A DNA stretch of 11,494 bases from Promethearchaeia archaeon. GTDB lineage: Archaea; Asgardarchaeota; Lokiarchaeia; Sigyniarchaeales; SOKP01. The notes beneath the pieces were generated by a model that saw only the letters and a program-made list of their open reading frames with translations, was not told the origin of the DNA and ran no database searches. The translations under genes were made by a program, and so were the position numbers. The stretch is from positions 1-11,494 of the forward strand of contig JAHQWJ010000006.1 in assembly GCA_029856125.1 (NCBI GenBank), in the 5' to 3' direction. Below, piece after piece: positions 150 to 11,494 of this stretch (position 1 is its first letter; every line of letters starts with the position of its first letter).

Positions 150-1193
150 ATGCCAAAAGAGGTCATCCTCTGCCTAAGTTATTTTGATTCAATATTGGGT
201 CCTAACCTACTTCATTGTAGTTCCCCATTAAATCCTCAAGAACATCCAGATTTAAGTAGAATTCTGGAATTCACTGAGGAAGAAGGAAATTTTATATTTA
301 CTTTTAGAAAATACCAAACCGTTAACCACATTTTCTATATTGACTCCGAATTTGCGCGAGGAGGAAAAGAGCTCCTAATGATAACTTATATGATTAGAGC
401 CGCTTACTTTAAGGACGAAATTACTGATGTATACAATTACTTATTATCTAAAGAGGCTGATCTAGAATCTTATGCTTCTGAACTTAAAAAACTTCAAGCA
501 CTCACAGAATTACTACATGGCCATAAAGATCTTACAAATAAAAAGAAAATTCTTAATCTCGCCTCGAAAGGGTTTAAAACAATTTTTATGAATCTTTTTA
601 ATAAATATTTAGAAAAGATGAGTCCAAAGATAGATTTAACTACTCATTCATTAAACAGAGGAAACTTAAAGAAGATTTATGTTTTTGGACCACGAAACGC
701 AGGAAAAACTACGTTCGTAAAAAACTTAGAGGTTATACAATTTCTCCAATATAAGAACAATGAAATGAAACGAGATCTGGCAAGTAAGATATATGATTTT
801 ATAATTGATAACATCGAAGTTTTGACTTACGAATGTATTGATGAAGATACGGATGATGAAACAACTACATTGTACGAAGATTGTATAGATAATGCTCAAG
901 GTTTTATCTTAATCTATGATGCCTCTAATAAGGACTCTATGAAAGAAACCATTGAAATGTTCCAGTTAGTTTTAAATAGATGTCAAGTTAAGGGGGATTC
1001 TATGCCAATAATGATAATTGGCAATAAATATCACGACAAAGAAGAATTACCCCCTGATTTGATACTTGAGAATTTCGATCTGAATGAATTAGCTGAGTGT
1101 GGGTTATTGGTCCAATCTTATTCCATTAATGTTCTCAGCGAGGATGAAAAAATTATTGAAGCAATTCGCTGGCTTTTAATGCGTATTATATAA
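150..1193 (+). CDS. Ras-superfamily small GTPase-like protein (atypical G motifs) with N-terminal longin/uDENN-like domain
   Basis: 347 aa ORF. P-loop GPRNAGKT at aa 180-187 (nt 687-710), Ras-like strand AQGFILIYDAS, G4-like IIGNKYH (nt 1023-1034). N-terminus ILCLSYFDSILGPNLLHC resembles the 'hydrophobic-F-x4-GP' first hairpin of uDENN/longin domains (NPRL2, folliculin, SMCR8). Confidence 0.75.
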   Translation: MPKEVILCLSYFDSILGPNLLHCSSPLNPQEHPDLSRILEFTEEEGNFIFTFRKYQTVNHIFYIDSEFARGGKELLMITYMIRAAYFKDEITDVYNYLLSKEADLESYASELKKLQALTELLHGHKDLTNKKKILNLASKGFKTIFMNLFNKYLEKMSPKIDLTTHSLNRGNLKKIYVFGPRNAGKTTFVKNLEVIQFLQYKNNEMKRDLASKIYDFIIDNIEVLTYECIDEDTDDETTTLYEDCIDNAQGFILIYDASNKDSMKETIEMFQLVLNRCQVKGDSMPIMIIGNKYHDKEELPPDLILENFDLNELAECGLLVQSYSINVLSEDEKIIEAIRWLLMRII

Positions 1194-2940: not shown

Positions 2941-3594
2941 ATGGAATCGACCAAATCGAGCTTAGCAAGAATTAAAATTAAATTCCCAGATCAGATTTGG
3001 ATCGCACACATTTTCAAAAACTTTCGAGATATCCGAATGGAAATTGAACATTTTCTTCCCTACGATTTTGAAAACTCAATAGGTAATTCTATAATTGAAA
3101 TTTTTCACTACAGTATCGATTTAATAATAGATGAAGTTAAAAATCACAAATCTGTTATCGATTTCAGTATTCTGGAAATGGATAAAAAACGGGTTAAATT
3201 CAATGTCAAAACTAAGGATCCCTTTCTTTTGTACGCTGTAATTAGATGTGGCGTTTTAGTGAATTTCCCAATTAGAGTTAGAGAAGGATATGCATTTTGG
3301 CGGTTAGTTTCAAAGAGAGAGAATATAGACAAACTCTTATCATTATTTGATCAGAAAGGCATTGAATATACACTTCTCAGAATTGGAAATTCTCCTTATA
3401 GTATTGACGACGATAAGAATAAGCTAACATTAGATGAATCTACAATTTTGAATAAAGCTATCTCTTCAGGTTTTTTTGAAATTCCAAGAAAGATTTCTTT
3501 AGAGGAATTAGCAAACGAGTTAGGAAAGTCAAAATCTGCTTTATCTGTTACTCTTAGAAAAATAATAAAAAAAAAAGTAATGTTCGAGATGTAG
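2941..3594 (+). CDS. HTH_10 (bacterio-opsin activator-like C-terminal HTH) archaeal transcriptional regulator
   Basis: C-terminal LTLDESTILNKAISSGFFEIPRKISLEELANELGKSKSALSVTLRK matches the HTH_10 consensus (LT..Q...L..A...GYF..PR...L.ELA.ELG.S.S....LR). The 217 aa size is typical. Divergent from isf. Confidence 0.88.
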   Translation: MESTKSSLARIKIKFPDQIWIAHIFKNFRDIRMEIEHFLPYDFENSIGNSIIEIFHYSIDLIIDEVKNHKSVIDFSILEMDKKRVKFNVKTKDPFLLYAVIRCGVLVNFPIRVREGYAFWRLVSKRENIDKLLSLFDQKGIEYTLLRIGNSPYSIDDDKNKLTLDESTILNKAISSGFFEIPRKISLEELANELGKSKSALSVTLRKIIKKKVMFEM

Positions 3595-5189: not shown

Positions 5190-5269
5190 TTATATATTTT
5201 TAATTTCGAACATGTTCTTTTTAGCTTTAATTGTTCTATTTTTCAATGTATAATAAAAACCTTAAAATA
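5190..5269. promoter_or_regulatory. Divergent promoter region: TATA boxes for the 4Fe-4S gene (-) and the oxidoreductase (+), with a central palindrome
   Basis: Minus strand AAAAA-TATATAA (5196-5190) about 22-28 nt before ATG 5168. Plus strand AAAAACC-TTAAAATA (5262-5269) about 23 nt before ATG 5292. Perfect palindrome GAACATGTTC at 5208-5217. Confidence 0.45.
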
Positions 5270-5291: not shown

Positions 5292-6632
5292 ATGGAAAAA
5301 ATAATAATCGTTGGTAATAATGTAGCCGGAACCTTTACCGCTCAGAATATTCGATTTCTCAACGAAGACGTTGATATTGAAATTTTTACTCAAGAACGGT
5401 ATCCCTATTATACCAGAATTAAATTGCCTGAAGTTATCTCCAACAAAGTTCAAGCTAACGATTTAATCGTTTTTAAAGATGATTGGTATAAGGATAAAAA
5501 AATTAAGTTAAACCTAAATAAAAGAGTAATAAAAATCGAGCCACATCAGAAAAAATTATTTATTGAGGGTGAAAACAAACCTGCTACTTATGATAAATTA
5601 ATATTAGCTTTGGGTAGTGTTCCCAATATACCTCCCATTAAAAACGCAAGGGAAATAGTTGGAAAAGGAGTATTTACTTTAAGAACAATAGAAGATACTA
5701 TAAACATTAAAAATTATATTGAAAAGACCAAAGCTAAAAAAGCTATTATTATTGGAGGGGGGTTACTTGGGTTAGAATTAGCTAGCCAAATAAAAGACAG
5801 CAATTTAGACACCACTGTAGTCGAATTTTTTCCAAAATTACTTCCCAGACAGCTGGATGACGAATGTAGCGCCATGCTCAAAAAGGAGATTGAAACTAGA
5901 GGTATAAAAGTAGTTTTAAACGCCGCAACTGAAGAAATCCTTGGTAATGGACATGTTACTGGAATTAAATTAAAAGATGGACAAATTTTTGAAGCAGATA
6001 TTATTTTAATCCAAGCAGGTATTAGAGCCACAATAGATCTTGCTCAAAATTCCGGAATAGAAACAAATCGAGGTATCATTGTTGATGAATTTTTAGAAAC
6101 TAGTGAAAAAGATATCTTCGCCGTAGGTGATTGCATTGAATACAAGAATCAAACCTGGGGAATAATTCCTGCTTGTATGGAACAGTCCAAAATAGTTGCT
6201 GCATCTGCCTTGGGTTTAAGAAAGATTGAGTACAAAGGAACGACACCTAAAAATACCTTAAAAATCGTTGGTTTAGAATTAACTTCAATCGGAGTTTTTG
6301 ATCCTTCGCAAGAAGTAGGAGGTAGTTGGGAGATTCTTAAAAAAGCAGACAAGGAAGATTGTTGTTACCAAAAGCTAGTTTTAAAAGATAACAAATTGAA
6401 AGGAGCCATTCTTTTTGGAGACTCTAACGCAATGTCGTTTGTGTACACGAAAATGGAACAAGAGGTCACCAAGAAAGAACTTATGGAAATCCTTGAGCTG
6501 TATCTCTACAAATGTTCCAACTGTGGTGCGGAATACGACGAAACAAAAATGGAAATTCTCTTCGAAAATTTGCCTGAAGATTGGAAATGTCCAAATTGTA
6601 AACACTTGAAAGAAGGTTTCGAAAAAATATAA
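5292..6632 (+). CDS. FAD-dependent NAD(P)H:rubredoxin oxidoreductase-like protein (NirB N-terminal/NROR family) with fused C-terminal rubredoxin domain
   Basis: IIIVGNNVAG (FAD), YDKLILALGS, IIGGGLLGLE plus VVE (NADH-type), TSEKDIFAVGD. C-terminus YKCSNCGAEYD...FENLPEDWKCPNC is a rubredoxin domain (about nt 6507-6629). Confidence 0.88.
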   Translation: MEKIIIVGNNVAGTFTAQNIRFLNEDVDIEIFTQERYPYYTRIKLPEVISNKVQANDLIVFKDDWYKDKKIKLNLNKRVIKIEPHQKKLFIEGENKPATYDKLILALGSVPNIPPIKNAREIVGKGVFTLRTIEDTINIKNYIEKTKAKKAIIIGGGLLGLELASQIKDSNLDTTVVEFFPKLLPRQLDDECSAMLKKEIETRGIKVVLNAATEEILGNGHVTGIKLKDGQIFEADIILIQAGIRATIDLAQNSGIETNRGIIVDEFLETSEKDIFAVGDCIEYKNQTWGIIPACMEQSKIVAASALGLRKIEYKGTTPKNTLKIVGLELTSIGVFDPSQEVGGSWEILKKADKEDCCYQKLVLKDNKLKGAILFGDSNAMSFVYTKMEQEVTKKELMEILELYLYKCSNCGAEYDETKMEILFENLPEDWKCPNCKHLKEGFEKI

Positions 6633-6637
6633 ATTCT

Positions 6638-6644
6638 AGGTGAT
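6638..6644 (+). promoter_or_regulatory. Shine-Dalgarno site of rubredoxin 1
   Basis: AGGTGAT ending 4 nt upstream of ATG 6649, in the 16-nt gap after the oxidoreductase stop. Confidence 0.7.
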
Positions 6645-6648
6645 TTTT

Positions 6649-6789
6649 ATGGCAATATATCGATGTAAAAGATGTAATTATCTCTATATTGACGAAGAAC
6701 AAAAAGTTCCTTTTGAGGCAGTTGACGAAGACTATAAATGCCCGAGGTGCCGAGCTTCTAAGAGATTTTTTGTAAAGAAAAATGCTTAA
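6649..6789 (+). CDS. Rubredoxin-like protein 1 (46 aa, atypical, basic); not in ORF track
   Basis: Manual translation MAIYRCKRCNYLYIDEEQKVPFEAVDEDYKCPRCRASKRFFVKKNA*. Two CxxC, YxY, F..V..DYKCPxC and K..F rubredoxin pattern, with a strong SD. Confidence 0.85.
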   Translation: MAIYRCKRCNYLYIDEEQKVPFEAVDEDYKCPRCRASKRFFVKKNA

Positions 6790-6860
6790 TAAAATAATAA
6801 ACTGAAATAATGATCAGATTTATGATAATTGACTAGAAATAAATTTAAGATTGATGAGTA

Positions 6861-8483
6861 ATGGCTTACGATATAATTATTAAAAACGGTAAAATTATTG
6901 ATGGAGCGGGAAACCCTTGGTATTGGGGTGAAATAGGTATTGAGAATGGGAAAATAACAAAGATAGCTCCAAAAATAAAAGATGACGCTAAAAAGGTGAT
7001 CGATGCAAATCGAATGATTGTTTGTCCGGGTTTTATTGACATCCATTCTCACTCTGATTACTTCTTACCAGTTGGTAGGGGTCAAGAGTCTACATTATAC
7101 CAAGGAGTAACTACTGCTGTCGTAGGCATGTGCGGAGATGGAATGGCGCCTATCCCGAAGGGAAAAGAAGAAGAATTTAAAAAAAGAGTAGGAACATTAG
7201 ACCCTGCTCTTGCTCAGCTAGAATATCCCTATCATACTTTTAAGGAATACTTGGAATTCAACGAAAAAAAGAGAAATTCAGCAAATTTAGCTTTTTTCAT
7301 AGGTTATGGAAATGTGCGAATAATTGGGGGCCAAGGGGGCGAAGATCGACCTGCTACATCTGAAGAACTTGATACAATGAAAGGATACATAAGAGAGGCG
7401 ATGGAAGCTGGGGCGTTTGGAATGAGTACAGGATTAATATATGCACCTCAACTGTTTGCTTCTACAAGTGAAATCATTGAGTTGGCTAAAATAGTTGCTG
7501 AATACAACGGGTTATATTTTTCGCATATTCGTGGTGAAGGTGAATCTGTTACAAAAGCTGTAGGAGAAGTAATAGAAATTGTTGAAAAATCAGGTTGTGC
7601 CGGAGGGCAAATTGCACATCATAAAATCTCGGGTGAAAAGTATTGGGGAAAGAGTAAGGATACAATTCATCTTATCGCTGAAGCTAACAATAGAGGTATT
7701 AGCATAACTTGCGATCAATATCCCTATAATCGCGGAATGTCTGATTTGATGTCAGCGTTACCCCCTTGGGCACGAAAAGGTAATAATGACGACATTTTAG
7801 AACGGATAAAAAATCCTGATGTACAAAAGCGAATCAAAGACGATGTTGAAAAAGGGATCGAAGGTTGGGAAAACTGGATTCGTGATATAGGTATGAAAAA
7901 TTTATTTATCTCCACTGTTAATCATGATAATTGGAAAGATGTAATAACAAAAAATATCACAGAAATCACTAAGATTAAAGGATTATCAGACGATTTCGAT
8001 ACCTTTTTTAATCTATTAATTGACAACGAGCTAAGTGTCCAGATTACCATAAAAAGTATGGGAGAAGAAGATATCCATAGAATCATGACTAGTCGATATC
8101 AAATGGTTGGAACGGATGGTTCTGGAATCCTTGCTACCATCAGTTCAGGAGCATTTCATCCTCGTTTTTTTGGAACATATCCTCGAATTCTAGGTAAATA
8201 TGTCAGAGAAGAAAAAATCTTAACTTTAGAGCAAGCCATTCGCAAAATGTCATCGTTTCCAGCCCAACGGCTTGGACTCCAAGACAGAGGACTTGTTAGA
8301 GAAGGAAATTGGGCTGATTTAGTTATCTTTGATCCCGATAAGGTTATTGATAAAGCAACCTTTGAACAACCTTACCAGCTTCCTGAAGGTATCCCATATG
8401 TTATCGTTAATGGCGTTATCGTCATTGAAAGAGGAAAAAAGAATAGAAAAGCTCCGGGAAAAGTAATACGTCGCCGTGCCTAA
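6861..8483 (+). CDS. N-acyl-D-amino-acid deacylase (D-aminoacylase), amidohydrolase superfamily
   Basis: PGFIDIHSHSD, GVTTAVVGMCG (Cys ligand), GAFGMSTGLIYAP, SHIRGEG, IAHHK, DQYPY, GTDG, HPRFFGTYPRILG, ADLVIFDP. 540 aa. Confidence 0.9.
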   Translation: MAYDIIIKNGKIIDGAGNPWYWGEIGIENGKITKIAPKIKDDAKKVIDANRMIVCPGFIDIHSHSDYFLPVGRGQESTLYQGVTTAVVGMCGDGMAPIPKGKEEEFKKRVGTLDPALAQLEYPYHTFKEYLEFNEKKRNSANLAFFIGYGNVRIIGGQGGEDRPATSEELDTMKGYIREAMEAGAFGMSTGLIYAPQLFASTSEIIELAKIVAEYNGLYFSHIRGEGESVTKAVGEVIEIVEKSGCAGGQIAHHKISGEKYWGKSKDTIHLIAEANNRGISITCDQYPYNRGMSDLMSALPPWARKGNNDDILERIKNPDVQKRIKDDVEKGIEGWENWIRDIGMKNLFISTVNHDNWKDVITKNITEITKIKGLSDDFDTFFNLLIDNELSVQITIKSMGEEDIHRIMTSRYQMVGTDGSGILATISSGAFHPRFFGTYPRILGKYVREEKILTLEQAIRKMSSFPAQRLGLQDRGLVREGNWADLVIFDPDKVIDKATFEQPYQLPEGIPYVIVNGVIVIERGKKNRKAPGKVIRRRA

Positions 8484-8687
8484 AATCAATATATATTAAT
8501 TCAAGAATCATTAACTTTTTTCTCAAATGTTAAGATGATTTATCTTTTCTCATCTTCAAATTTCAAGTTTAAAGGCTATAGCTTAATCAGATTAATTTAT
8601 AAAATATTAAATTAATATTTTTAATGTACATTCAATTAACAAATCCATAAATACAAATTAATTAAATTAAAAGAAAGGTAGTTTATA

Positions 8688-8822
8688 GTGGCTAAATGGG
8701 AATGTGGCGCTTGCGGATATGTTTACGACGAAGAAAAAGAAGGAACTAAGTTCGAAGATCTTCCTGATGATTGGGTATGTCCAGTTTGCGGCGTAGACAA
8801 GAGTTTCTTTACACAAATTTAA
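8688..8822 (+). CDS. Rubredoxin 2 (44 aa, GTG start); not in ORF track
   Basis: Manual translation [44 protein letters not shown]. Textbook CxxCGYxYD...[14 protein letters not shown]..K..F. SD-like AAAGGT about 8 nt upstream. Confidence 0.95.
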
Positions 8823-8838
8823 GTATAACCTTAATTAC

Positions 8839-8876
8839 TTATTTTTATTTATATTCTTATTTTTTTCTTTTATATT
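8839..8876 (+). terminator. T-rich terminator region after rubredoxin 2
   Basis: Multiple T-tracts (TTTTTATTT, TTTTTTTCTTTT) shortly after the stop codon. Confidence 0.4.
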
Positions 8877-9016
8877 GGGCGTAAATCATTTGTTAGCTTA
8901 AATTTGTCTTAAAACTTTTCTAAAATTTATAAGATAAATAAATTAAATTTATTAAAAACAAACAAAAAAATAACTTAAATAACAACAATTAATCCAAAAA
9001 TTGGAATTAAAAAAAT

Positions 9017-10225
9017 ATGACTCATTTAGAATTATTGAAAGACGTATGGTACGTTGGTTATGTAGATTTTGAAGTAAGAAATTTTCACGGATACTCCACT
9101 CATAGAGGGACCTCCTATAACGCCTATATAGTTAAATCAGGAGATAAAACAGTATTAATAGACACAGTTAAGCGTCCGTATTTCGAATATTTTTTGGATA
9201 AAATAAAACAGGTATGTGATCCAGCAGAAATTGATTATTTAATCATGGATCACATTGAGATGGACCATTCCGGGTCTTTTCCGCTAATTTTAAAACACAT
9301 ACCTAACGCAGAAATAATTGCTTCTGCTAGAGGTGTTGATGTTCTAAAGAGCCATTTCCATCAAGAAATTGACGCTGAGGTGTTCGATAGAATTCGAGCC
9401 GTTAAGAATGGAGACACTTTGGATATTGGAAATGGTAAAAAATTCACATTCGTACCGATACCCATGATACATTGGCCAGATAGCATGGTAGCATTTATGA
9501 GTGACGATAATGGGAAAAATGTCCTGTTTTCTAGCGATGCTTTCGGGCAACATATTGCAACAACTATGCGTTGGGACGATGAAAATGACATGTGTGAGAT
9601 TATGGAAGAAGCGGAAAAATACTACGCTAATATTTTACTTCATTTATCGGGACTTATTGCAAAAACGCTTCCCGTAGTTGGAGCATTACCTATTGATGTT
9701 GTATGTACTGCTCATGGTGTTTGTTGGAGAAAAAACATTCCAGAGATATTAGAGAAGTATAGGAAGTGGTCAACCGGAGAAATAAAAGGAAAAAGCGTTT
9801 TAATCGTTTACGATAGTATGTGGGAGAGTACAGCTAAAATTGCTAAAGCTTTAATGAAAGAAATTCGTCATAGAGGTATTCCAGTTAAAAGATTCAGATT
9901 GACTCAAGCAGATTATTCTGATGTTATTACTGAGGCAATGAAGGCAAAAGCAATATTGGTTGGAAGTCCAACCCTAAACAATGGGCTTTACCCGTCTGTT
10001 GCGGAATACTTATGTTATCAAAGAGGCTTGAAACCTATGAATAAAGTTGGATTAGCTTTTGGTTCTTATGGATGGTCAGGTCAAGCTGTCCAAGAAATAG
10101 CTGAACAAATGAAAGCTGCTGGAATAGATGTTATGGACGAGGTGATTAAGATTAAATTCGTTCCGAAAGCAGAGGATTTAGATTTTAAAGATATTGTAGA
10201 TAAATTAATAGAAAAAATGAAATAA
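9017..10225 (+). CDS. fprA: Class A flavodiiron protein (FprA / rubredoxin:oxygen or NO oxidoreductase)
   Basis: GTSYNAY, di-iron ligands HIEMDH, HWPDSM, SSDAFG, TAHG. Flavodoxin domain YDSMWEST, GSPTLNN, AFGSYGWSG. 402 aa, no extra C-terminal domain. Confidence 0.95.
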   Translation: MTHLELLKDVWYVGYVDFEVRNFHGYSTHRGTSYNAYIVKSGDKTVLIDTVKRPYFEYFLDKIKQVCDPAEIDYLIMDHIEMDHSGSFPLILKHIPNAEIIASARGVDVLKSHFHQEIDAEVFDRIRAVKNGDTLDIGNGKKFTFVPIPMIHWPDSMVAFMSDDNGKNVLFSSDAFGQHIATTMRWDDENDMCEIMEEAEKYYANILLHLSGLIAKTLPVVGALPIDVVCTAHGVCWRKNIPEILEKYRKWSTGEIKGKSVLIVYDSMWESTAKIAKALMKEIRHRGIPVKRFRLTQADYSDVITEAMKAKAILVGSPTLNNGLYPSVAEYLCYQRGLKPMNKVGLAFGSYGWSGQAVQEIAEQMKAAGIDVMDEVIKIKFVPKAEDLDFKDIVDKLIEKMK

Positions 10226-10229
10226 AATA

Positions 10230-10234
10230 GAGGT
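10230..10234 (+). promoter_or_regulatory. Shine-Dalgarno site of the acyl-CoA dehydrogenase
   Basis: GAGGT 8 nt upstream of ATG 10243, within the 17-nt gap after fprA. Confidence 0.65.
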
Positions 10235-10242
10235 TAAAAAAA

Positions 10243-11494
10243 ATGGATTTTAATTTAACAGAAGCACAACTAGCTTTACAAAAGAAAGCTAGGGAGTTTG
10301 CTGTAAAGGAAGTTCTACCTACCTCCTTCAGTTATGATGAACATGAAGTTATGCCTATAAAAGTCATTGAAAAAGCATGGAAGGCAGGATTGACAAATTT
10401 AGGCGTTCCCAAAGAGTATGGCGGGCAAGGGTATGGTTTAATGGAATCAGTAATAGTTGTAGAAGAAATTGCAGCTGCATGTCCGGGGACCGCAACTTCA
10501 ATATTTGATAACGATCTAGGCTCAGGACCTATAGTAATTGGGGGGAACGAAGAGCAAAAGAATAGAGTATTAAAGGATATAACAGAAAATTTCAAATTAA
10601 TCGCGTTTGCCACTTCAGAGCCAGGAATGGGTAGCGATGTAGCTGGAATGCAATGCCGCGCTGAAAAAGATGGAAAAGATTTTGTGTTAAACGGAACTAA
10701 ATATTGGATAACTAACGCAGGATATTCTGATTATATCACCGTTTTTGCAACGACTGATCCAGAGAAAAAACATCGAGGTATAGCGGGATTCATTGTACCA
10801 ACTGATTATGAAGGAGTTAAAACTGGACCACATATACCGAAATTAGGCCAACGAGCATCTAATACTTGTTCTGTTGTATTGAAAGATGTGAGAATACCTG
10901 AAGAAAATGTTTTGGCAAAACCGGGTAGAGGATTTCTGTTAGCTATGCAAACTTTTCAAAAAACTAGACCTGCTGTTGCAGCGTTTGCTGTAGGTTGCGC
11001 AAGGTCAGCGATGGAATATGCTATTGACTATGCTCAGAAAAGAGAGACATTTGGAAGGCCTATAGGAACTTATCAAGGGATTCAATTCAAATTAGCAGAG
11101 ATGTATAAGGATATTGAAGCTGCGAGATTATTGACATACAAAGCGGCTTGGGAAGGAGATCAAGGATTAGATAGTAATCTTACATCTTCTATGGCAAAAG
11201 CATTTGCTTCAGATGTTGGAATGAATGTTACCACTGAAGCTATCCAAGTTTTTGGAGGATATGGGTATCTTAGGACATTTCCTGTCGAAAAATTGTTTAG
11301 AGACGCAAAATTGTATCAAATCTACGAAGGTACGTCAGAAATACAGAGGATAGTAATTGCACGGTTTATCATGAAAAAATATCAGCACGCAATGCCTAAT
11401 CTATTTGAAATTCCACGAGTAGAAATCGAAGTGGAAGAAAAAACTAAAAAAGTTGTCTCAAAAATAGATAAAACTAGTGATGAATTGGGCGGAA
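10243..11494 (+). CDS. Acyl-CoA dehydrogenase (short/medium-chain type), 3'-truncated by the window, with C-terminal extension; not in ORF track
   Basis: Manual translation MDFNLTEAQLALQKKAREFA...VPKEYGGQG...AFATSEPGMGSDV...LNGTKYWITNA...KLGQRAS...QKRETFGRPI...FGGYGY...RDAKLYQIYEGTSEIQRIVIAR. Catalytic Glu in YEGT (aa 362). Open for 417 codons to the window end. Confidence 0.95.
   Translation, partial: MDFNLTEAQLALQKKAREFAVKEVLPTSFSYDEHEVMPIKVIEKAWKAGLTNLGVPKEYGGQGYGLMESVIVVEEIAAACPGTATSIFDNDLGSGPIVIGGNEEQKNRVLKDITENFKLIAFATSEPGMGSDVAGMQCRAEKDGKDFVLNGTKYWITNAGYSDYITVFATTDPEKKHRGIAGFIVPTDYEGVKTGPHIPKLGQRASNTCSVVLKDVRIPEENVLAKPGRGFLLAMQTFQKTRPAVAAFAVGCARSAMEYAIDYAQKRETFGRPIGTYQGIQFKLAEMYKDIEAARLLTYKAAWEGDQGLDSNLTSSMAKAFASDVGMNVTTEAIQVFGGYGYLRTFPVEKLFRDAKLYQIYEGTSEIQRIVIARFIMKKYQHAMPNLFEIPRVEIEVEEKTKKVVSKIDKTSDELGG

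Follow-up and report, generated by a model that had tools for sequence, protein, structure and literature searches.

A predicted rubredoxin-based oxygen-defence island with NADH and acyl-CoA as possible electron donors in a Loki-type Asgard archaeon

Introduction

How might a strictly anaerobic archaeon cope with oxygen, and could it even gain from it? The question is raised by a DNA stretch of 11,494 nucleotides from a Promethearchaeia archaeon (GenBank assembly GCA_029856125.1, contig JAHQWJ010000006.1), which we refer to as the window and which makes up all of contig C6 in an assembly of 3.69 Mb that is 99% complete. It carries genes for an NADH:rubredoxin oxidoreductase (NROR) with a C-terminal rubredoxin (Rd) domain (NROR-Rd), two small rubredoxins (Rd1 and Rd2) separated by an amidohydrolase, the flavodiiron protein (FDP) FprA and an acyl-CoA dehydrogenase (ACAD). 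How oxygen was handled by the archaeal relatives of eukaryotes is a central issue for models of eukaryogenesis; no terminal oxidase is known from the cultured Loki-type Asgard archaea, which are strict anaerobes.

Our analysis points to the window as the left two thirds of an island of ~20 kb for defence against oxygen and reactive oxygen in a strictly anaerobic Lokiarchaeial lineage, probably centred on a pool of rubredoxin-type FeCys4 centres. That this island serves Rd-based oxygen defence we consider highly probable. That ACAD donates electrons to it is rather probable in our estimate and, with slightly less confidence, we favour the scheme as a whole, namely a rubredoxin hub in which NADH via NROR-Rd and acyl-CoA via an Rd-fused ACAD (ACAD-Rd) would deliver electrons to FprA and from there to O2, and probably also to superoxide reductase and rubrerythrin. 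A whole order of Loki-type archaea would then keep a dedicated rubredoxin network with a specific, testable wiring, whose parts, as small soluble proteins, all lend themselves to expression and assay. In the searchable literature we found nothing that describes this cluster for Asgard archaea, and public annotations name its products only as 'FAD-dependent oxidoreductase', 'nitrite reductase large subunit', 'flavorubredoxin' and 'acyl-CoA dehydrogenase family protein'. The parts are mostly classical for anaerobes; the acyl-CoA branch would be a simpler, archaeal parallel to an enzyme that was described from bacteria in 2024.

Results

The window encodes a complete NADH-rubredoxin-flavodiiron chain

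Gene content, domains and ligand motifs could be read directly from the DNA (Table 1). An initial annotation of the window had named six co-oriented genes, and all six were indeed present on the plus strand, where the annotation had placed them. It had also noted that three of these are absent from the open reading frame (ORF) track. This is plausible, since Rd1 and Rd2 are shorter than 50 amino acids and ACAD runs off the contig. A default list (at least 60 amino acids, closed ends) drops exactly these three, and an ordinary ORF list thus misses half of the six genes.

Table 1. Features of the window, with the core genes first and the flanking genes and upstream elements below
Feature	Position	Strand	Basis or remark
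NROR-Rd (NADH:rubredoxin oxidoreductase with C-terminal Rd domain), 446 aa	5292..6632	+	Pfam
Rd1, divergent basic rubredoxin-like protein, 46 aa	6649..6789	+	CKRC...CPRC; Pfam Rubredoxin 27.6 bits (cut-off 23)
D-aminoacylase-type amidohydrolase, 540 aa	6861..8483	+	PDB relatives
Rd2, canonical rubredoxin, 44 aa	8688..8822	+	CGACG...CPVCG; Pfam Rubredoxin 56.2 bits
FprA, class A flavodiiron protein, 402 aa	9017..10225	+	ODP and Flavodoxin_1
ACAD (acyl-CoA dehydrogenase), first 417 codons, 3'-open	10243..11494	+	three ACAD Pfam domains
Arf/Ras-family small GTPase domain (residues 175-344) after a ~170-residue unassigned N-terminal region	150-1193		
Glutaredoxin-like protein, 98 aa	1863..2159	+	Pfam Glutaredoxin 26 bits
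FMN_red flavoprotein, 200 aa	2248..2850	-	Pfam FMN_red 92 bits; CX2CX2CX6C
HTH_10 DNA-binding protein, 217 aa, candidate island regulator	2941..3594	+	Pfam HTH_10 49 bits
2x[4Fe-4S] ferredoxin-domain protein, 289 aa	4299..5168	-	Pfam Fer4 families
Palindrome TTCGAACATGTTC (core GAACATGTTC), candidate operator	5205..5217		~75 nt upstream of the NROR-Rd start
A/T block ATAATAAAAACCTTAAAATAAAATAA	5250..5275	+	most conserved stretch of a 46-sequence upstream alignment

The product of the first core gene matched the Pfam families Pyr_redox_2 (191 bits), Pyr_redox (72 bits), Rubredoxin_C (53.8 bits, cut-off 25.9) and Rubredoxin (27.1 bits). Its Rd domain holds the Cys pairs C408xxC411 and C433xxC436, which are the only CxxC pairs in the protein, and the closest solved relatives of the NROR part are 1XHC and 3KLJ, which we take to be NRORs. 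Assignments as an NADH oxidase or a CoA-disulfide reductase (CoADR) were ruled out by the absence of an N-terminal redox Cys (the first 100 residues contain no Cys at all), by the Rubredoxin_C domain and by the fused Rd; a separate CoADR-rhodanese protein is encoded elsewhere, on contig C25. Full-length orthologues of NROR-Rd with 62–92% identity were found in 20 same-genus genomes, and NROR-Rd fusions as such are also present in bacteria. We predict that NROR-Rd is an NADH-dependent rubredoxin reductase, for which the fused Rd and the adjacent Rd1 provide circumstantial support.

Rd1 starts 16 nt after NROR-Rd, with AGGTGA located 7 nt before its ATG, and the two genes are probably co-transcribed. 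The protein is very basic, lacks the conserved Gly residues and matched the NCBIfam 'RCKP-type' family far under the cut-off, and its membership in the rubredoxins is weaker than that of the other Rd domains. Across the loci that we compared for gene order (20 from the same genus, and 53 from a species scan in which every prokaryotic species was represented by one genome), Rd1 was present in 47. All 47 sequences were distinct and 45 of them kept all four Cys (CxxC...CxxC); we regard Rd1, on this comparison, as a divergent but real protein. Rd2 is 64–100% identical across 44 loci, with CxxC...CxxC kept in 43. It has its own AT-rich upstream region, and its stop codon is followed by runs of five and seven T (T5 at 8842 and T7 at 8860).

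FprA combines an ODP domain (residues 34–234) with a Flavodoxin_1 domain (residues 263–388) and has no further domain, which is the class A layout. Its diiron ligands lie in H79-I-E-M-D-H84 and at H152 (HWPDS), D174 (DAFGQH) and H233 (AHG), and each of these residues aligns with Moorella thermoacetica FprA (1YCF). The Moorella enzyme was also the best match among solved structures, with 350 bits; Rd-dependent bacterial FDPs scored 350 and 267–295 bits, as compared to 232–237 bits for the F420H2 oxidases of methanogens (6FRM, 237 bits). On these scores, an assignment of FprA as an F420H2 oxidase was dropped as first choice. We predict that FprA is the O2- and/or NO-reducing terminal enzyme. Judged by domains and motifs, all members of the chain proposed in the initial annotation, from NADH via NROR and rubredoxin to a class A FDP, are present, and their synteny extends over the genus and further.

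The acyl-CoA dehydrogenase carries a rubredoxin domain beyond the contig break

ACAD matched the N-terminal, middle and C-terminal Pfam domains of its family with 94, 92 and 172 bits, respectively, and contains YEGT at residues 361–364 with the catalytic Glu 362. Among solved structures the enzyme comes closest to medium-chain ACADs (1UKW, 398 bits; mammalian medium-chain ACADs, 364–373 bits), and the best NCBIfam match was the acryloyl-CoA reductase AcrC, which at 368 bits remained well under the cut-off of 640. The gene starts 17 nt after FprA, and a Shine-Dalgarno (SD)-like GAGGT precedes its ATG.

The end of C6 (window positions 11368–11494) overlaps the start of contig C25 (L100:1-127) over 127 nt, 125 of which are identical, and the two mismatches probably reflect strain variation. 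On C25 the ACAD frame continues (bases 1–279) with a linker of ~35 residues and a canonical C-terminal Rd domain that scored 79.5 bits. The closest relative (G003, 97% identical) has the fusion in one piece, with 467 amino acids and a Rubredoxin match of 77 bits. The assembly of the window organism broke inside the ACAD linker; such breaks hide fusion proteins from annotation. The 'three rubredoxin centres' of the initial annotation have to be corrected to four, since ACAD brings one that lies past the end of the contig; two CxxC pairs are present in each of the NROR tail, Rd1, Rd2 and the ACAD tail. The genome as a whole encodes five rubredoxin domains, four of which lie in the island. An AlphaFold model of ACAD-Rd reached a mean predicted local distance difference test score (pLDDT) of 78.7, which is moderate, with values of ~80–90 in the Rd, ~50–60 in the linker and low values at residues 339–381; it is consistent with a folded, tethered Rd.

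How widespread the fusion is could be judged at several levels. In a collection of 5.8 billion proteins, ~49 clusters (90% identity) of ACAD-Rd fusions were found, 71–96% identical and, wherever named, from Asgard archaea; unfused ACAD orthologues, with 75–77% identity, come after the fusions in the match list. Within the genus, 32 of 42 genomes had an ACAD match, one orthologue each, of which ~11 are fused and ~20 unfused. A sample of 121 genomes of the class contained canonical-Rd ACAD fusions in seven genera and fusions with a short tail in families f2 and f4 and genera g17 and g19. In quick trees of the ACAD core, built with FastTree and rooted on non-Asgard ACADs, the short-tail clade (support 0.997) branched off as sister to all other forms (0.91), among which the canonical fusions made up a paraphyletic grade and all 70 unfused forms fell into one nested clade (0.967–0.999). 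This single nested position argues for one loss of the Rd, and indicates that the fused Rd is ancestral in this ACAD clade. Furthermore, the linker motif MPxLxE(L/I)PR is common to both tail types and, read together with the quick tree, hints at a single ancestral C-terminal extension.

Alleles of these genes appear in different combinations. In two genomes (G020, locus L032, and G016, locus L033), NROR-Rd is 71% identical to that of the window and ACAD-Rd is 89–92% identical to the G003 allele used as query; other genomes (L027-L029) have an NROR with 81–82% identity but an unfused ACAD with 73%. This mosaic of the island suggests allele exchange within the genus.

An electron transfer flavoprotein (ETF) as a local partner of ACAD was rejected, as there is no ETF gene in the island. 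The ETF genes of this organism lie outside it, on contigs C126, C16 and C52, and the set on C16 adjoins an ACAD paralogue.

The gene order is conserved across Loki-type archaea

All 53 close loci from the species scan, Loki_b31 and Loki_b32 among them, come from metagenome-assembled genomes that bear the name of the Asgard phylum (Promethearchaeota) or of its Loki class (Promethearchaeia), and the complete genome of Ca. Harpocratesius repetitus belongs to the same GTDB order as the window organism. By these matches the organism is a Loki-type Asgard archaeon, as the initial annotation had supposed, and this fits the low G+C content of the window (30–37%), the Arf/Ras-like GTPase and the HTH_10 regulator.

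The order NROR-Rd, Rd1, Rd2, FprA, ACAD recurs in ~50 species-level genomes, and the linkage is conserved in relatives. Since the same order is found in so many related genomes, the arrangement is not due to chance. With strands in brackets, the recurring order reads glutaredoxin (+), FMN_red (-), HTH_10 (+), Fer4 (-), NROR-Rd (+), Rd1 (+), in some loci the amidohydrolase (+), Rd2 (+), FprA (+), ACAD or ACAD-Rd (+) and, further on, a HAD hydrolase, desulfoferrodoxin, rubrerythrin, CoADR-rhodanese, NifU and IscS (all -). The gap between FprA and ACAD measures 10–29 nt in 33 loci, and FprA is also followed by ACAD in three further genera (g12, g14 and g17) and in family f4. The members of family f2, to which Harpocratesius belongs, have an unfused NROR divergent to an FDP, and ACAD lies 0.8–4 kb downstream. 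Outside the genus, FprA is 29–32% identical to that of the window (75–76% in genus g17) and ACAD 51–58%, with a short rubrerythrin-type Rd tail. Linkage that is kept despite such divergence is, in our view, the strongest in-silico evidence for function.

The amidohydrolase does not share this conservation. Its family assignment as a D-aminoacylase held, with N-acyl-D-glutamate deacylase 3GIP (251 bits) and D-aminoacylase 1M7J (234 bits) as the closest solved structures, and so did its place in the gene run; as a functional member of the system, however, it was ruled out by synteny. The gene is present in only ~15 of ~50 related loci, always between Rd1 and Rd2, and the distance from Rd1 to Rd2 in loci without it has a median of 156 nt. 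By this comparison it is an insertion in one subclade and not a core component.

From the short gaps, the SD-like motifs (GAGGT, AGGTGA) and the T-runs found 3' of the amidohydrolase as well as after Rd2, we infer three transcription units, namely NROR-Rd-Rd1 with or without the amidohydrolase, Rd2, and FprA-ACAD.

Comparison with known electron-transfer systems

NROR-rubredoxin systems that serve FDPs, superoxide reductase and rubrerythrin in defence are found in Clostridium acetobutylicum, Pyrococcus furiosus and Desulfovibrio. The island shares with them the clustering of NROR, small rubredoxins, a class A FDP, desulfoferrodoxin and rubrerythrin. It differs in that its NROR has its own Rd, two more Rd genes are present, one of them divergent and basic, the cluster includes an ACAD, and the host is an Asgard archaeon. 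In multidomain FDPs and the Escherichia coli flavorubredoxin system NorV/NorW, an FDP core, an Rd and an NROR-type reductase likewise deliver NADH electrons, whereas the island has its fused Rd domains on the reductase and on ACAD, and the FDP stays plain class A. Moorella, the source of the closest solved FDP, also encodes an Rd-fused flavoprotein as donor near its FDP. This protein, the high-molecular-weight rubredoxin Hrb, is described in the review PMC12288474 as an NAD(P)H-dependent dehydrogenase that contains FMN and a fused Rd. Unlike the island's enzyme, Hrb is not an NROR with two dinucleotide-binding domains, and the system of Hrb and FprA has no acyl-CoA branch.

The closest parallel for the acyl-CoA branch is the butyryl-CoA:oxygen oxidoreductase (BOOR) of Fusobacterium nucleatum, consisting of the protein BCR and the adjacent FDP FN1423 (Bystrom & Wolthers 2024, as reviewed in PMC12288474). 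As summarised in that review, BCR joins a butyryl-CoA dehydrogenase domain, a C-terminal EtfA part and a rubredoxin, and is bicistronic with a class A FDP; BOOR is an alpha4beta4 complex that couples the oxidation of butyryl-CoA (-10 mV) to the reduction of O2, and that, according to the review, has no NO reductase activity (PMC12288474). By an exhaustive representative search we found a 638-aa BCR-type protein (ACAD, ETF_alpha with 92.5 bits, and Rubredoxin) with an FDP gene directly after it, at locus L112.

In both systems a C-terminal rubredoxin is part of an acyl-CoA dehydrogenase whose gene lies directly beside that of a class A FDP, and in both the proposed flow runs from acyl-CoA via FAD and Rd to the FMN and diiron site and on to O2, so that a weak reductant would take the place of NADH. 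Yet the archaeal ACAD-Rd has no ETF-alpha FAD domain (no PF00766 match) and only the ~35-residue linker. It therefore lacks one defining feature of BOOR, which it resembles in its proposed function without being a member. The gene order is FDP then ACAD in the archaea and reversed at the BOOR-type locus L112. Many archaeal orthologues have lost the Rd and would depend on free Rd2, and the island also encodes an NADH branch. In addition, the archaeal dehydrogenase is of the medium-chain type, 42% identical to the BCR-type protein and 43–51% to ordinary ACADs. Since ACAD-Rd is no closer to the former than to the latter, independent recruitment is probable, and the archaeal ACAD-Rd/FprA pair was probably assembled independently of BOOR.

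Proposed electron routes and their alternatives

In the first branch of the rubredoxin hub, NADH would reduce the FAD of NROR-Rd, and single electrons would exit via the fused Rd, Rd1 and Rd2 to the FMN and the diiron site of FprA. FprA would turn O2 into water and possibly NO into N2O. The Rd pool would very probably also feed the desulfoferrodoxin-type superoxide reductase and rubrerythrin, whose genes lie ~5 kb downstream on C25, for the reduction of superoxide and peroxide. In the second, BOOR-like branch, ACAD, predicted to be co-transcribed with FprA, would convert acyl-CoA to enoyl-CoA and pass the electrons through its own tethered Rd to FprA, without ETF; in relatives with an Rd-less ACAD, free Rd2 would take over this transfer. 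O2 would thus be removed at the cost of a weak reductant (about -10 mV), and NADH would be spared. The initial annotation had mentioned acyl-CoA as a second possible donor, and this idea is now better supported by the C-terminal Rd of ACAD itself, by the tight pairing with FprA in 33 loci and by the precedent of BOOR.

Several points weigh against this wiring. About two thirds of the ACAD orthologues have no fused Rd, and some genera have ACAD-Rd alone, far from any FDP. Four relatives (92–100% complete) have lost the island FprA yet keep NROR, the rubredoxins and ACAD, with Rd2 directly before ACAD (loci L034 in G004, L036 in G011, L032 in G020 and L121 in G076), and retain just an FprA paralogue of 41–43% identity elsewhere in the genome. 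The ACAD/Rd/NROR set is therefore not strictly dependent on this FDP. In BOOR an ETF-alpha FAD domain lies between dehydrogenase and Rd; ACAD-Rd has no such domain, and its electrons would have to pass directly from the FAD of ACAD to Rd. The structural model says nothing about docking, and the specificity of FprA for O2 or NO cannot be read from sequence.

The four losses are what keeps open a reversed direction of flow, which we consider unlikely but which has to be weighed. NROR-Rd, the free rubredoxins and ACAD, with or without its Rd, would then form a soluble, non-bifurcating NADH-dependent enoyl-CoA reductase that acts as a fermentative sink, with electrons running from NADH via FAD and Rd to the FAD of ACAD and to enoyl-CoA, and with FprA as a safety valve on the same Rd pool. 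NAD+ is energetically unfeasible as an acceptor for acyl-CoA oxidation, so that the ACAD of the genomes without island FprA must either receive electrons or use other acceptors. Both flavoenzymes have their own Rd, as if for mutual exchange. The enoyl-CoA/acyl-CoA couple, at about -10 mV (PMC12288474), lies near typical rubredoxin potentials, so that the step should be reversible, and the AcrC match of ACAD, although far below its cut-off, is to a reductase. However, the remaining genes of the island concern oxidative stress (superoxide reductase, rubrerythrin, glutaredoxin, CoADR), the tight operon-like pair that is kept across families is FprA with ACAD and not NROR with ACAD, the sole characterised enzyme of the ACAD-Rd type runs towards O2, and ACAD itself is nearest to catabolic medium-chain ACADs.

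ACAD might also be a mere neighbour that serves ordinary ETF-linked acyl-CoA catabolism, its position beside FprA being meaningless. The ETF pairs encoded in the genome, the majority of unfused orthologues and the fused ACADs far from any FDP would be in agreement with this. We nevertheless hold it to be very improbable, because the Rd is ancestral in this ACAD clade and the unfused forms are a single nested clade, ACAD has stayed next to FprA in several genera and families though both proteins diverged, with the short gap in 33 loci, and the island has no ETF while the ACAD paralogue on C16 does adjoin one. A further alternative concerns the acceptor and the donor of FprA, which could be chiefly an NO reductase or be fed by F420H2 like the FprA of methanogens, so that the island would serve nitrosative stress or be F420-linked. 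The Moorella FprA structure was deposited as 'nitric oxide reductase', and methanogen FprA enzymes, which are F420H2 oxidases, do match at 232–237 bits. Rd-dependent bacterial FDPs match better, though, the surroundings hold two rubredoxin genes, two Rd-fused flavoenzymes, superoxide reductase and rubrerythrin, and BOOR is reviewed as having no NO reductase activity. We judge this alternative to be quite improbable.

Should the acyl-CoA branch of the rubredoxin hub work as proposed, it would be a second, independently built case of the BOOR principle, and these archaea would gain from O2, by NADH that is spared and acyl-CoA oxidation that is pulled, and not merely suffer from it. A bolder version, which is conceivable though we doubt it, is that Lokiarchaeial anaerobes go beyond detoxification and use traces of O2 as a soluble, membrane-free electron sink for that step of acyl-CoA catabolism which is thermodynamically the hardest. 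The ETF-free ACAD-Rd would feed the flavodiiron oxidase directly, and NADH, superoxide reductase and rubrerythrin would share the same Rd pool. The whole, arisen independently of the bacterial BOOR, would be a cytoplasmic proto-respiratory chain for acyl-CoA oxidation in archaea related to eukaryotes.

Flanking genes, upstream elements and genome setting

To the left of the core genes, the GTPase gene marks the edge of the island in ~15 loci and is typical Asgard content, the glutaredoxin gene takes the same left-flank position in ~35 related loci, and a CbiX gene is also located upstream of the core genes in the window. The FMN_red gene is syntenic with the island in 36 loci and the HTH_10 gene in ~40. 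The compact Cys motif of the FMN_red protein resembles that of the iron-sulfur flavoproteins of methanogens, and the protein may be one of them, which we take as a lead only; no solved iron-sulfur flavoprotein matched it at 1e-5. The ferredoxin-domain gene is divergent upstream of NROR in 41 loci, and its product contains two [4Fe-4S] motifs, two QCGC repeats and a Cys-rich C-terminal part. Comparison of the FMN_red and Fer4 proteins with solved structures gave nothing specific.

Upstream of NROR-Rd, the A/T block would be the BRE/TATA promoter (transcription factor B recognition element and TATA box), as predicted from the archaeal consensus. The core of the palindrome was found in 24 of 46 NROR upstream regions, distant relatives included, where it forms a conserved block in the alignment. 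Genome-wide the palindrome was not enriched, with 4 exact copies versus 3.8 expected and 28 versus 19–24 at up to 3 mismatches. As its copy number equals the chance expectation, the idea that it marks a genome-wide regulon found no support. A search of the NROR, Rd2 and FprA upstream regions gave no common GC-containing k-mer.

On C25, ACAD-Rd is followed by genes for an Rce1-like (CPBP-type) protease, an MFS transporter, a HAD hydrolase and a second FMN_red protein (282 aa, C25 3619-4467). Further on lie desulfoferrodoxin, rubrerythrin, the 796-aa CoADR/NADH-oxidase-rhodanese protein and NifU/IscS, which are also conserved in relatives; the desulfoferrodoxin gene, encoding superoxide reductase, is the sole copy in the genome. 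The protease gene (L100:355-1218, minus strand) lies between ACAD-Rd and the MFS transporter. At that spot it is missing in five relatives, and the gap there measures 122–158 nt.

Searches for cytochrome bd and haem-copper oxidase found none in the genome, and both searches did match control genomes. The fifth rubredoxin domain of the genome forms the N-terminus of a thiamine pyrophosphate (TPP) enzyme (TPP_enzyme_N/M/C) on contig C150 (L108:1-1635, minus strand), whose open frame of ~602 amino acids lies inside L108 over 545 amino acids. Through such a 2-oxoacid-type enzyme, which brings its own Rd, the rubredoxin pool could have a third input. Contig C30 encodes a second FprA, which shares 43% identity with that of the island and has no Rd or NROR neighbour. 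It is adjoined by an HTH_10 gene (L002:2793-3458), a paralogue of the island HTH_10 gene with 32% identity over the full length. Both FprA loci of this genome thus adjoin an HTH_10 protein of about 220 amino acids, and the pair may be dedicated redox- or O2-responsive regulators of the flavodiiron genes.

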